Made by a program: the position numbers and the translations under genes. Positions 1 to 59,060 of a DNA stretch of 64,000 nucleotides are shown here, piece after piece. The DNA is from Candidatus Sungiibacteriota bacterium. GTDB taxonomy: Bacteria; Patescibacteriota; Minisyncoccia; Sungbacterales; HO2-52-23. Position 1 is the first letter of the stretch, and every line of letters begins with the position of its first letter. The stretch lies in contig JACPBG010000002.1 of the NCBI GenBank assembly GCA_016180435.1, positions 60,342-124,341 of the forward strand, given 5' to 3'. The notes under the pieces were generated by a model, which searched no databases, was not told where the DNA came from, and was given only the letters and a program-made list of their open reading frames with translations.

Positions 1-947
1 TTCCTAACCCGGATGTGATGTGTAACCGTCATATTAAGTTCGGGCTGTTTCTTAAACGTGCTCTGAAAGAGGGGGCGGATTTTATAGCGACCGGACACTA
101 TGTGCGCTTAAGCGCAAGAACTAAGAGCTTAGAACTTAGAACTAAGAAAAATCTGATGCTAAGTTCTAAGTCCTATATTCTAAGTTCTGCGGCCGATGCC
201 GCCAAGGACCAGTCCTATTTCCTTTGGACTCTTGCGCAAGACCAATTAAAACATTGTCTTTTTCCGATCGGGGAATACACTAAGCCCGCGGTACGGGAAA
301 TGGCGCGAAAATTCGGTTTGCCGGTTGCGGAAAAGCCGGATTCGCAAGGAGTGTGTTTTATCGGGGAATTTGACATGAAAGAATTTTTAAAAAAGCGGAT
401 TCCAGAATCGCGCGGACCGGTTGTGACAACCAGCGGCAAAAAAGTGGGGGAGCATGAGGGGCTTTCGTTTTATACCATTGGACAGCGACATGGGATGGGG
501 ATTGGGGGCCGCCCCGCAGAGCGGGGCGAGCCTCGCCCCAAAGGGGCGGGCGGGATTCCATATTATGTCGTGGCTAAGGATTTTAAAACCGACACGCTTA
601 TTGTCGGAGAGGGGCCTTATGACGAGAAATTATTCAAGAAAGAACTTATCGCCACAAATGTAAATTGGATTTTCGGGAAAGAGCCAAAATTACCTTTAAA
701 ATGCGAGGCGCGAATTAGGTATCGCCAGCCGTTACAACGCTGTCGCGTTGAAGCAAATAAAGAACTTAGAACTAAGAACTTAGAAAGAAAACTAAGTTCT
801 AAGTTCTATATGCTAAATGCTTGCCGCGTCAAAGTTATTTTTGATGCGGTACAACGCGCCGTAACTCCCGGCCAGTCAGTGGTATTTTATCAGGGAGATG
901 AAATGTTGGGGGGCGGAATTATTTACCCCGTTAGAGATGCGGAATAA
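1..947 (+). CDS. mnmA: tRNA 2-thiouridylase MnmA, C-terminal part (the gene continues upstream of the window). It carries three in-frame palindromic-repeat insertions.
   Basis: Translation from nt 3 reads PNPDVMCNRHIKF...GADFIATGHY...KDQSYFLW...GVCFIGE...TPGQSVVFYQG, which aligns along E. coli MnmA. Extra peptide segments correspond to the tagaac and GC-palindrome repeats. Confidence 0.8.
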   Translation, partial: PNPDVMCNRHIKFGLFLKRALKEGADFIATGHYVRLSARTKSLELRTKKNLMLSSKSYILSSAADAAKDQSYFLWTLAQDQLKHCLFPIGEYTKPAVREMARKFGLPVAEKPDSQGVCFIGEFDMKEFLKKRIPESRGPVVTTSGKKVGEHEGLSFYTIGQRHGMGIGGRPAERGEPRPKGAGGIPYYVVAKDFKTDTLIVGEGPYDEKLFKKELIATNVNWIFGKEPKLPLKCEARIRYRQPLQRCRVEANKELRTKNLERKLSSKFYMLNACRVKVIFDAVQRAVTPGQSVVFYQGDEMLGGGIIYPVRDAE

Positions 948-1096
948 AATAATGCTGGCGTGGATACATTTGATTGCGGAACAGATATTATTCAAAGTTT
1001 TATCTTGTACTAAATCTCTAACGACGGGGTTGACTCTTAAATCGGCTTATGCTACATTGCGTCCAGTACTTTAATTTATATACAGAGGATAAAGTC

Positions 1097-1723
1097 ATGG
1101 AAGAGAAGAAAAGCACTAACGTAAAGCGCGGAGAGTGGTTGAAATTTGCGTATGACGTCTTTCAGAAAGCTAAGGGGGAGGGCCTTCCTTTTATTTCTCC
1201 GTCCAGTTTTGTAACCAGGGTAACGGAGTTTGCGGGAAAGTCAGACCGGAATTATAAACATCTTTACCAGATTCCCGGGCTTAGGCGGGCTGTTGATTTT
1301 CTTTTGCAGTGCGGAGCAATTGAGCGCATAGAAATAGAAAAAGAAGAAGGTAATGCGCATGGTTTTCGTATTACCGCGAAAACTATTTTGCCTGAAGTGC
1401 TTGCGGCCGAGTTTAATTCTATACGGGTACAAAAGAAGACGCGAGCATCAGAGCAGACCGATTCTGAGGATGTTTCAACCTTAGAGCTTGTTGGTCAGGT
1501 GGTTCTGGAACTTGCAAAACTTGAAAAAGTAAGAGAAGAACGTCTTCAGGCGGCCGAAGATGCGGTTAGCAAGTTGCGTTCGGATGCGTCCGGTGCGCTG
1601 GCGTTATCTAGGCATGCCATGGAGCTCCGGCAGAATCTTGTTGACGCATTGCAGAAGTTGCGTGCGCAAAATTCATCCAGCCAACCCGTTGTAAAAATGC
1701 GGCGTGCGAGACAATCAGTATGA
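1097..1723 (+). CDS. Hypothetical protein with a coiled-coil C-terminus. Its stop overlaps the rpoD start (ATGA).
   Basis: ORF with MEEKK start. Translationally coupled to the sigma factor gene. No recognisable motifs. Confidence 0.45.
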
Positions 1724-57471: not shown

Positions 57472-57668
57472 ATTAACCCCCCCCCGCATTCATTGAATAT
57501 GTGATTATTGTTGCACAGAAACGATCGAGCAAAATCCTCGCTTTCGGATAGATGGATGCTATGCAGTGCCGCTTCTGCAGCAAGTGCCCGAACTAGTGCT
57601 GGAAAAACTTTGGAATACAGCGCCAATTCGATCTTGTCGGCCTTTTTCTCTATTTCTTCAGGTTCCAT
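57468..57668 (-). CDS. Small hypothetical protein (upstream gene of the pair).
   Basis: 66-aa ORF only. Confidence 0.3.
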   Translation of the reverse strand: MEPEEIEKKADKIELALYSKVFPALVRALAAEAALHSIHLSESEDFARSFLCNNNHIFNECGGGLI

Positions 57669-57785
57669 TATGCCTCCGATCTTTAATGGGTATTCGTGTA
57701 AAGGTTCAATTGTTGTACACTATATAATATATATTCTATTATGTCAATAGATTTAGATGTTTGGATATAATATAATCTTTATTAT

Positions 57786-59060
57786 ATGCGTCAGTCCATA
57801 TTATTTGGAAAAACGCTCCGTAAGGGGCCCAAAGACGAGATTTCAAAAAATGCCAACCTTTTGGTTCGCGGCGGTTTTGTGGCCAAAGAAATTGCCGGAA
57901 TATATTCTTTTTTACCGCTAGGTCTCCGGGTGCTTGATAAGATAGCCAGGATTATACGCGGAGAAATGAATGATGTTTTGGGAGCACAGGAGATTCTGAT
58001 GCCCGCACTCCACCCGATCGAGAATTACCAAAAAACCGGACGCGAAAAAATCGATGTGCTTTTTCACACGGAACTTGCATCAGGCGGCAAGTTGGTGCTT
58101 GGCCAAAGCCATGAGGAGATCGTGGTGCCCCTGGCAAAGCATTTTATTTCATCCTACCGCGATCTGCCGCTTGGGCTTTATCAAATTCAGACCAAATTTC
58201 GCAATGAACTTCGCGCTAAATCAGGCATGCTCCGCGGCCGCGAATTTATGATGAAAGATCTTTATTCATTTCATGCGGATGAAAATGATTTTGAAAAATA
58301 TTATGAGCGGGCGAAGATCGCATATAAAGATATTTTTGAAAAAGCCGGTTTAGGCGGACAAACCTATCTTACATTTGCCTCCGGCGGGACATTTTCCAAG
58401 TACTCCCATGAATTTCAGACCATAACCGAGGCCGGAGAAGACACCATTTATCTTTGTAAAGAATGTAAAATTGCGATAAATGACGAAATTATCGGGGAAC
58501 AGAAAAATTGCCCGCAATGCAATGCGCCTATAGCCAAATTATTGCAAGAAAAAGCAATCGAGGTCGGGAATATTTTTCCCTTAAAAACCAGATTTTCGGA
58601 CGCCTTTGGCTTGTCTTATATCGACAAATCAGGCCAGACGCATCCTGTGGTAATGGGATGCTACGGGATAGGATTGGGACGCGTTTTGGGCGCGATTGTA
58701 GAGGTACATAACGATAAAAACGGCATTATTTGGCCGGAAAGTGTGGCGCCGTATAAAGTGCATCTGATAGAACTTAGAACTAAGAATTTAGAACTTAGTG
58801 ATGATCCGGTACGCGGGGCAGCCGAAAAGTTATATAACCATCTGCTTGCTAAAGGAATTGAAGTGTTATACGATGACCGCGACGATAAAACAGCCGGAGA
58901 GAAATTCACGGATGCGGATTTGATAGGAATCCCGTGGAGAGTGGTTATTTCGGAGAAAACCGTTCAGCGAAATGCAATAGAAGTTAAAAAGCGTGATTCA
59001 CCCGGGAGTGAGTTGATGTCTGTGGTAAGTTTTCTCCAGAATTTAAAAGTAAAAATGTAA
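57786..59060 (+). CDS. proS: Prolyl-tRNA synthetase (short form lacking the editing domain), with an in-frame family A insertion.
   Basis: Class II motifs (FRNELRAKSGMLRGREF, GCYGIGLGRV) and an anticodon-binding C-terminus. The IELRTKNLELS segment is encoded by agaacttagaactaagaatttagaactta. Confidence 0.85.
   Translation: MRQSILFGKTLRKGPKDEISKNANLLVRGGFVAKEIAGIYSFLPLGLRVLDKIARIIRGEMNDVLGAQEILMPALHPIENYQKTGREKIDVLFHTELASGGKLVLGQSHEEIVVPLAKHFISSYRDLPLGLYQIQTKFRNELRAKSGMLRGREFMMKDLYSFHADENDFEKYYERAKIAYKDIFEKAGLGGQTYLTFASGGTFSKYSHEFQTITEAGEDTIYLCKECKIAINDEIIGEQKNCPQCNAPIAKLLQEKAIEVGNIFPLKTRFSDAFGLSYIDKSGQTHPVVMGCYGIGLGRVLGAIVEVHNDKNGIIWPESVAPYKVHLIELRTKNLELSDDPVRGAAEKLYNHLLAKGIEVLYDDRDDKTAGEKFTDADLIGIPWRVVISEKTVQRNAIEVKKRDSPGSELMSVVSFLQNLKVKM

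Follow-up and report, generated by a model that had tools for sequence, protein, structure and literature searches.

Dispersed hairpin-forming repeats lie between housekeeping genes, and in frame inside them, in a Candidatus Sungbacteria genome

Short palindromes and tandem repeats dispersed through bacterial genomes have been described in several systems. In the part of PMC10969869 that relates the work of Ogata et al. (2000), Rickettsia palindromic elements (RPEs) are palindromes of ~100–150 bp that are dispersed between genes and also occur in frame in housekeeping genes. The account of repetitive extragenic palindromic (REP) sequences excerpted from PMC3733652 names as their hallmark a tetranucleotide, GTAG or CGTC, that is conserved at one of the ends. 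Among the long simple-sequence repeats of bacteria, heptanucleotide repeats form the most common class and are ascribed to polymerase slippage in the extract of PMC4679880 that quotes Mrazek (2007); the TAACTGA repeats of Beggiatoaceae are located within operons for ribosomal proteins, close upstream of start codons, in a heptanucleotide class described as unexplained (PMC4679880). Here, we analyzed a 64-kb window (the whole stretch of DNA considered, 64,000 nt of contig JACPBG010000002.1) from a groundwater metagenome-assembled genome (MAG) of Candidatus Sungbacteria (Parcubacteria, Candidate Phyla Radiation, CPR), which revealed that this genome has been colonized by several families of dispersed, hairpin-forming repeats of 30–170 nt without coding capacity of their own. 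Copies occur in intergenic spacers and, in frame, inside mnmA, gdhA, proS, and a gene for a TlpA-like thiol-disulfide reductase. A full-text literature search found no published report of in-frame palindromic elements in CPR, as had been supposed in an earlier reading of the same sequence (hereafter the original prediction).

The GdhA, MnmA, and TlpA-like proteins of the window are 100% identical to proteins of this MAG, which bears out the reduced, CPR-type host proposed in that reading. The window has a GC content of ~45%, and its + strand carries nearly all genes. The gene identities first proposed agree with matches to Pfam (S13, S11, S4, RpoA, L17, L13, S9, DUF3105, TrxB, and MreC) and to the PDB (MnmA, GdhA, ProRS, and a TlpA/ResA-like protein), and infA and rpmJ were identified directly from translations of their open reading frames (ORFs). 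All host ORFs are open throughout the repeats and align end to end with solved homologs. Syntenic contigs of relatives served for comparison, namely L120 (GW2011_GWA2_45_30; GdhA 78% identical), L123 (GdhA 65%), L204 (MnmA 70%), L230, and L124 and L129 (RpsD 79–88%). A tRNA and tmRNA scan found neither, and an Rfam search of the whole window at the gathering threshold returned 0 matches, hence no known ribozyme or intron family.

Self-similarity sorts the repeat copies into families, and motif counts are far above expectation. At least eight copies lie within ORFs of the window and belong to at least four families (A, B, B', and a family with inverted ends, here the inverted-end family); at least four further families are intergenic. 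The original prediction, which likened the in-frame copies to RPEs, was right about their behavior, but it had recognized two families and missed the inverted-end one. With the single array in proS as the exception, the elements fold with z-scores of −2.7 to −8.6 against shuffled sequences. The copies of B and B' and the inverted-end elements of mnmA and gdhA are the following.

507..558, + strand: family B stem-bulge-stem at mnmA site 2, GC-rich; net insertion 42 nt (507–548); peptide GRPAERGEPRPKGA.
925..1029, + strand: inverted-end element at the 3' end of mnmA, ACCCCGTTAGAG...CTCTAACGACGGGGT.
43687..43716, + strand: family B' palindrome in the TlpA-like thiol-disulfide reductase gene, a clean in-frame 30-nt insertion encoding PLRSRESEAS.
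52554..52621, + strand: relic trxB start (LYDVIIIGG at 52554–52579) and B-like palindrome (~52580–52616); the functional ATG is at 52622.
54149..54215, + strand: inverted-end element in gdhA with a Y-shaped fold (−49.2 kcal/mol, z −8.6); peptide DNPVRDPMPMASADAEGRLVSN.
54570..54621, + strand: family B element in gdhA; net insertion 42 nt; peptide QQSGASLAQNGRAG.
63737..63768, + strand: family B' palindrome in a family F element, at the center of the F copy 63680–63847.

Family B is a 52-nt GC-rich stem-bulge-stem with three copies, at 507–558, at 54570–54621, and, diverged, at ~52580–52616. The mnmA and gdhA copies are identical at 48 of 52 positions, lie in unrelated genes, and are read in different frames (GRPAERGEPRPKGA versus QQSGASLAQNGRAG). 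A B-like element in proS of L123 is read in the third, so that B is read in three frames across mnmA, gdhA, and L123 proS. Family B' is a 30-nt GC palindrome whose two copies (43686–43717 and 63737–63768) are alike, neither resembling B, and both B and B' are free of stop codons in all six frames. The original assignment to family B thus stands for the mnmA and gdhA copies; the TlpA-like insert and the palindrome nested in the F element, placed at 63729, are B' instead. Nor does a family B copy form the 5' end of trxB as proposed: it precedes the real ATG and comes after a relic copy of trxB codons one to nine, which is nearer to a relative's trxB than the functional start is. The second F copy (47253–47411) has a different center, and the F element 63680–63847 sits within the loop of a TCTAATT-type heptamer hairpin (63633–63885). 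A B-like in-frame insertion, GYKPGLARAGTAKGEPRSPK, occurs in alaS of L204 (~8281), and alaS of the window has its own 10-aa hairpin-encoded insertion, PGSREELLSG (4567–4596), absent in L204.

Insertion could be read directly from orthologs. At mnmA site 2, nine residues are extra relative to solved MnmA structures and the site is empty in L204 (ATC GGG|GGT GGG ATT), the last ~10 nt of the B element coinciding with native GGIP codons. In gdhA, the family B site adds 14 residues relative to solved structures and the inverted-end element is an in-frame 66-nt insertion of 22 codons; both sites are empty in L120 and L123, so that the gains of 66 nt and 42 nt were measured against 78% and 65% identical orthologs. 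The TlpA-like protein has 10 extra residues compared with solved structures, and its insert is absent from 13 orthologs, one of them at 77% identity. Clean empty sites for B, B', and the inverted-end family are therefore available in orthologs 70–78% identical, and every clean gain within a gene (66, 42, 42, and 30 nt) has a length divisible by three. Judged from these alignments, the copies of the three families are recent, lineage-specific gains, and the coding copies have evidently been filtered for frame and stop-free reading. The inserts, whose encoded peptides include LELRTKKNLMLSSK, GRPAERGEPRPK, and PVRDPMPMASADAEGR, would be translated as extra peptide segments of intact enzymes. The original prediction had named two outcomes that would speak against it, namely the same peptides in orthologs lacking the repeats and broken reading frames; what we found were clean empty sites for B, B', and the inverted-end family, and no broken frame.

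Family A differs from these families in being built of arrays of the heptamer TTAGAAC and its inverse. Its copies are as follows, the coding ones first.

116..188, + strand: family A hairpin at mnmA site 1, with a TTAGAAC-type arm, a loop, and a GTTCTAA-type arm; peptide SARTKSLELRTKKNLMLSSKSYILSS; z −6.1.
758..821, + strand: family A hairpin at mnmA site 3, in frame; peptide NKELRTKNLERKLSSKFYMLN; z −4.8.
54709..54767, + strand: family A inverse array and 12-bp hairpin in gdhA; (GTTCTAA)x4 at 54709–54743, hairpin GAATCGCAAC/GTTGCGATTC; z −5.1.
58767..58799, + strand: single family A array in proS, in frame (IELRTKNLELS), without hairpin; z −0.85.
11238..11307, + strand: family A hairpin filling the rpmJ-rpsM spacer.
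11698..11786, + strand: full family A unit in the rpsM-rpsK spacer, with mini-hairpin GTTGCGAAGCAAC at its end; z −5.4; stops in six frames.
12227..12323, + strand: full family A unit in the rpsK-rpsD spacer, abutting the rpsD ATG (12324).
14593..14662, + strand: family A hairpin in the rplQ-rplM spacer.
52464..52553, + strand: full family A unit in the DUF3105-trxB spacer; z −7.2.
35940..35990, + strand: family A-like TTAGAAT (TTTAGAA-type) arrays upstream of a 66-aa ORF.
36245..36275, + strand: inverse TCTAAGT/TCTAATC arrays, partner of 35940–35990.

Units were located in all five spacers that the original prediction had assigned to this family. The in-frame reading of its copies in mnmA, gdhA, and proS was likewise correct, but the palindrome claimed for the gdhA and proS copies was not, both being single heptamer arrays. 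The expected folding was found well below shuffles for full A hairpins (z −4.8 to −7.2) and for the gdhA elements, and not for the proS array. The 14-mer TTAGAACTTAGAAC (with ≤2 mismatches) has 41 matches in the window versus 0.32 expected, clustered at 11 loci (112–190, 759–822, 11245–11307, 11707–11780, 12236–12313, 14594–14662, 35940–35990, 36245–36275, 52472–52540, 54709–54743, and 58767–58794), and among the tandem periods of 4–12 that were scanned, arrays occur only at period 7 (5 vs 0). A full unit of ~90 nt consists of AAAGCAC, (TTAGAAC)3–4, a loop, the irregular inverse array CTAAGATCTAAGTTCTTRAATGCTAAGTTCTA, and the mini-hairpin GTTGCGAAGCAAC. The AAAGCAC flank, the CTAAGATCTAAGTTCTTRAATGCTAAGTTCTA arm, and the GTTGCGAAGCAAC mini-hairpin are common to three units, and these shared non-repeat details indicate that the units arose by copying, not as separate microsatellites. 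The long-range heptamer inverted repeat 35940–36275 encloses a small ORF of 66 aa (36004–36204) that has two CxxC pairs.

The stop codons of family A separate its coding from its intergenic copies. A perfect TTAGAAC array has TAG in 3/3 forward and TAA in 3/3 reverse frames, and stops close all six frames of every intergenic copy; in each coding copy a single forward frame is open, which is that of its host. The coding copies in TTAGAAC orientation (mnmA sites 1 and 3 and proS) carry the identical TAG-to-AAG change and all read LRTK. Relatives have different occupants at the same sites. Site 1 of mnmA, which adds 13 residues relative to solved MnmA structures, has a hairpin nearly base-for-base common to the L204 ortholog, and site 3, which adds 20, has a different hairpin in L204; together with the nine residues of site 2, these numbers match the ~11–14, 20, and 10 extra residues, with the frame kept, of the original prediction. 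The gdhA site holds (CTACAAC)4 in L120 and (TTAGAAA/TTCGAAA)4 in L123, and at the same proS codon a B-like element is present in L123. The gdhA and proS copies each add only ~3–5 residues, and proS shows no length difference from an 80% identical ortholog. The proS array lies in a 46-nt run identical with L120, the two genes being 75% identical at the nucleotide level and the next longest run being 23 nt. At sequence level, family A is thus best described as a heptanucleotide-array hairpin that is not simply "inserted," and its coding copies appear old.

The 12-bp hairpin beside the gdhA array combines a new 5' arm with a 3' arm made of native VAIQ codons. The 3' end of the gdhA B copy (GGGCGGGCGGGATTC) equals that of B plus the native GGIP codons in mnmA. 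These two junctions and the trxB relic may reflect homology-guided insertion or template switching.

A (TTAGAAC)x3 or longer array was found in at least 119 contigs of many phyla by a contig scan, including Fibrobacter, Geobacter, Shewanella, Bacteroidales, Acidobacteriota, Planctomycetes, and Saccharibacteria among the matches listed, so that the heptamer motif is not CPR-specific. Among the matches listed, an inverse array lies ≤150 nt away in 25/119 contigs, and variant heptamers often grade in. Like cyanobacterial short tandemly repeated repetitive (STRR) sequences and the TAACTGA repeats, family A consists of tandem 7-nt units with stops in three frames, is mostly intergenic, occupies ribosomal-protein spacers by start codons, has occasional copies within ORFs, and shows a sporadic, wide phylogenetic distribution. 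Its arrays adjoin the stop and start codons of neighboring genes. Family A differs in its units (TTAGAAC and a second array of ACAACTA), in the pairing of arrays with an inverse array and conserved non-repeat flanks to form a discrete ~90-nt element, and in coding copies that lie in the conserved body of enzymes and not at protein ends.

The inverted-end family has 11–13 nt terminal inverted repeats (ACCCCGTTAGAG/CTCTAACGGGGT) around a variable interior and comprises the elements 925–1029, 35603–35707, 54149–54215, and 60999–61106; its terminal repeats also occur in L124, L228, and L230. The first of these elements provides with its 5' end the final six codons of mnmA (PVRDAE) and the stop codon, and MnmA of L204, which lacks the element, ends six codons earlier (...GGGIIAY*). 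The two intergenic members are given below.

35603..35707, + strand: intergenic inverted-end element, ACCCCGTTAGAA...TTCTAACGGGGT.
60999..61106, + strand: inverted-end element in the mreC-mreD spacer, which is 116 nt here vs 5 nt in L120.

[quoted passage not shown] Most MITEs are larger than the elements here, the 64-kb window yielded no parent insertion sequence whose ends match, and membership fails on target-site duplication. At gdhA site 1, the element of L230 aligns better with that of the window in reverse orientation (31/43 vs 24/41 interior matches), which is suggestive only of opposite orientation in the two genomes.

Spacers show the same expansion. In the operon infA-rpmJ-rpsM-rpsK-rpsD-rpoA-rplQ-rplM-rpsI (10953–15066), every spacer contains a repeat, four of them family A units, and full A units have a uniform orientation relative to transcription and end a few nt before the next start codon; spacers of the same operon are 0–13 nt in more distant CPR. 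The operon also contains both copies of a 114-nt family (10958–11071 and 14068–14181), one copy of a 119-nt family (12953–13071; second copy 29547–29669), and an (ACAACTA)x5 array (15027–15060). In L124, three spacers of this operon have hairpins of like architecture with a CGAACAG-type unit, the assignment of families to spacers differs, and the rplQ-rplM hairpin has an inverted-end element nested inside. The PGI-glgA spacer is 178 nt here vs 28 nt in a relative. The amylase-ROK spacer holds a 164-nt near-perfect palindrome (50785–50948) and is ~30 nt in L120.

Structure prediction locates the inserts in the proteins. The AlphaFold model of MnmA has a mean predicted local distance difference test (pLDDT) of 90.1 and a predicted template modeling score (pTM) of 0.88, and its confidence dips only at 131–150, 261–280, and 351–370, which are the three insertion sites; site 1 is modeled as a beta-hairpin tip, and sites 1 and 3 lie between paired strands. 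In the GdhA model (pLDDT 81.6), values below 50 are confined to 46–58, between two strands, and 184–211, that is, to the two clean insertions, and the family A array is inside a predicted helix. The inserts would thus occupy fold-tolerant positions, low-confidence loops or beta-hairpin tips, with the core intact, in line with the surface-loop placement originally anticipated. Within the clade, orthologs of GdhA range from 405 to 479 aa and those of MnmA from 326 to 513 aa, and their insertions concentrate at few sites and fall into recognizable peptide families. A peptide akin to the mnmA site 2 insert is present at the same site in ~10/120 orthologs. At another GdhA site, a 35-aa insertion (APLENL...SLTG) with a conserved interior peptide occurs in orthologs P0033, P0047, P0050, P0060, P0072, P0082, and P0087; in L230 (7169–7259), the only such ortholog with DNA, it is bounded by CCCCGTTAGAG inverted ends and read in another frame.

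Compared with RPEs, the window shows the same combination of several dispersed palindromic families, located between genes and in frame in unrelated housekeeping genes of a reduced genome, with host ORFs preserved (mnmA, gdhA, tlpA-like, and proS) and the extra peptide at what appear to be structurally tolerant positions. The host, however, belongs to CPR/Parcubacteria, the elements measure 30–105 nt vs ~100–150 bp, one family is built of heptanucleotide arrays, one element supplies a stop codon, and a given site is occupied by different families in related genomes. Since one and the same element is read here in three frames, there is no single conserved "RPE peptide." We regard the resemblance as a functional analogy only, since the two are likened by behavior and not by sequence.

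A candidate mobilizing enzyme is encoded on related Sungbacteria/CPR contigs. L230 carries at 586–1320 a gene for a 230-aa protein with an HUH-like HYHL motif, which matches Pfam Y1_Tnp at 28.3 bits (cut-off 23) and has the REP-associated tyrosine transposase (RAYT) model as its best NCBIfam match (E 2e-11); a PDB sequence search with this protein gave 0 matches. The hairpin CTATTGAAGTnnnACTTCAATAG stands on both sides of the gene, with a third copy in frame in its own ORF (1082–1110), and a homolog 34% identical is found on L131 (54–581). Shared with REP/REPIN-RAYT systems are short imperfect palindromes, often inverted, in spacers, the lack of target-site duplication, family sequences specific to the genome, and a RAYT-like Y1/HUH gene flanked by hairpins on related contigs (L230 and L131). 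The differences are the many intragenic copies, the missing GTAG/CGTC tag, the lack of a RAYT gene in the 64-kb window, and the different hairpin of L230; membership of the REP/RAYT class fails on extragenic location and on the tag.

The explanation that we favor, with a probability of roughly 0.7, is that of dispersed hairpin families mobilized in trans and retained in frame. Copies would land in spacers as well as inside ORFs, and intragenic copies would be kept only if their length is divisible by three, no stop codon falls in the host frame, and the site is structurally tolerant (a loop or beta-hairpin tip). Retained intragenic copies would be translated as additional segments, as with RPEs. 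The coding copies of family A would be older and edited to lose in-frame TAG and TAA codons, and heptamer arrays of this family would also have been altered in place by replication slippage and array homogenization, both of which probably contribute. Mobilization would be by Y1/HUH tyrosine transposases of the RAYT type, which would act on single-stranded DNA hairpins and prefer existing hairpins as targets; this would account for the lack of target-site duplications, for nesting, and for the reuse of sites by different families. RAYT-type transposition of the window families is inferred from a RAYT-like gene that is flanked by hairpins on a related contig.

Several results weigh against this explanation or parts of it. 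A Pfam scan of 30 ORFs of the window revealed no transposase, and the window gave no tblastn match to the L230 RAYT-like protein. That protein scores 43.9 in NCBIfam, below the curated cut-off of 80 bits, and its flanking hairpin CTATTGAAGTnnnACTTCAATAG belongs to none of the families in the window. The ends of the elements lack the REP hallmark tag (A starts CACTTAG, the inverted-end family ACCCCGTTAG, and B GGCCGCCC), and comparison of the four clean insertions with their empty sites revealed neither a consistent target-site duplication nor a shared target motif. Compensatory changes were found in 0/22 pairs of the family A stem, so nothing there demonstrates selection for structure. Family A has no clean empty site in a close relative, where some hairpin or heptamer array is always present, and this occupancy fits growth in place as well. 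Finally, the translation of the inserts is itself deduced from sequence.

The constant occupancy of family A sites by differing arrays and hairpins among relatives suggests that the sites persist and their occupants turn over. As a tentative extension, with the odds somewhat against it, coding sequences (typically at beta-hairpin tips) and operon spacers may contain persistent "landing pads" in which hairpins are serially replaced, an existing hairpin being preferred by RAYT-type transposition or template switching; this may hold for Sungbacteria and perhaps many CPR, and the multi-phylum heptamer-array hairpins may belong to the same class. If so, hairpins would be a systematic, lineage-wide source of loop and beta-hairpin extensions in proteins.

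Growth in place of family A and similar heptamer hairpins is the alternative that survives best, although we consider it unlikely. Slippage would expand 7-nt units and fold-back template switching would make the inverse arm, so that the repeats would be expanded fragile sites and not mobile DNA. This agrees with period 7 as the sole tandem period of the window, with the slippage origin ascribed to heptanucleotide repeats in the quoted extract of PMC4679880, with (TTAGAAC)n arrays in at least 119 contigs into which variant units grade (an inverse array within ≤150 nt in 25/119 among the matches listed), with GTTCTAA, CTACAAC, or TTAGAAA arrays at the orthologous gdhA site of three relatives, with the like hairpin architecture built from a different unit in the same operon of L124, and with the gdhA mini-hairpin formed from a new 5' arm and native VAIQ codons. 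It does not explain why dispersed A units share non-heptamer flanks and an irregular arm, which indicates copying from one locus to another. Tandem structure is lacking in B, B', and the inverted-end family, yet these show clean presence and absence and near-identical copies in unrelated genes, and the family that fills a given spacer differs between sister genomes.

Quite unlikely, in our estimate, is that the repeats are selected cis-acting RNA or DNA structures, such as mRNA stabilizers, RNase III sites, modulators of translational coupling, or protein-binding sites. The element in every spacer from infA to rpsI, the same orientation of full A units to transcription with ends a few nt from the next start codon, the hairpins that the sister genome L124 has in this operon, and the 46-nt proS identity with L120 against a 75% background would all suit such a role, and a translational role has been proposed for the TAACTGA repeats near start codons in ribosomal-protein operons of Beggiatoaceae (PMC4679880). 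Against it stand stems without compensatory changes, and spacers of 0–13 nt that suffice in more distant CPR. The elements have no Rfam match and are not intrinsic terminators: a scan of 10700–15900 found none on the sense strand at any A copy, and no T-tract is present. Cis-acting function would also leave the coding copies, and the reading of one element in three frames, unexplained.

Removal of the inserts before translation, by intron-like excision from mRNA or by ribosome bypass, is very improbable. CPR carry insertions in rRNA genes, and structures as stable as that of −49 kcal/mol in gdhA could be taken in the same sense, but the lengths of the clean insertions (66, 42, 42, and 30 nt) are all divisible by three, stop codons are specifically absent from the host frame though they interrupt the family A consensus in each frame, the AlphaFold segments are modeled as loop or beta-hairpin extensions of an undisturbed fold, and no ribozyme or intron family was matched; inteins and introns were rejected on the pattern of frames and stop codons. 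An assembly or binning artefact, or pseudogenes, can hardly be credited: the source is a MAG and repeats confuse assemblers, but an identical 408-aa MnmA on 11 contigs of independent assemblies excludes an assembly artefact, a related GdhA (P0002) is present in 39 index blocks, the ORFs are uninterrupted and can be aligned over their full length with solved homologs, and orthologous insertions recur across many independent assemblies.

In-frame selfish DNA in essential genes has hitherto been treated as a near-peculiarity of Rickettsia, and the CPR case suggests that it recurs in small genomes, here with four or more families, with hot spots that different families have used in turn, and with orthologs that vary in length by tens of residues. 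The inserts are a possible source of new protein loops, and they will disturb alignments of CPR proteins, quality filters based on length, phylogenetic markers, and the prediction of structures. Spacers of operons otherwise expected to be compact may be repeat-filled. The heptamer-hairpin architecture also ties long-unexplained heptanucleotide arrays to discrete dispersed elements, and RAYT-like genes provide a hypothesis for their mobilization.

Other repeats of the window include an inverted 124-nt pair (28157–28280 and 43137–43263), whose end CACTAACAGCACGAACAGC is the unit of the L124 spacer hairpins, and AGGGGGTTTGCTGAATGTAGCCGCCTGC in three intergenic copies (30432–30456, 31248–31275, and 34450–34473). 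A promoter-like block, GTGCTATAATTA...TATATGAAACC...AAAAATTGCAAT, is duplicated at 55668–55709 and 56006–56046, with a single copy before gap in L120. Two likenesses were considered and rejected, namely binding sites of the HutP/TRAP type, with UAG triplets spaced at 7 nt, and the attC sites of integrons, in which the order of core motifs is opposite. In viral contigs, the family B core gave 20 matches, all of them unrelated GC-rich palindromes of high-GC phages with mismatching flanks. A scan of viral contigs with the inverted-end pattern gave one match, at 555–610 of the 5-kb contig L228 (IMGVR_UViG_3300031898_000117), which is classified as viral; this element has the ends CCCCGTTAGAG/CTCTAACGGGG and is intergenic.

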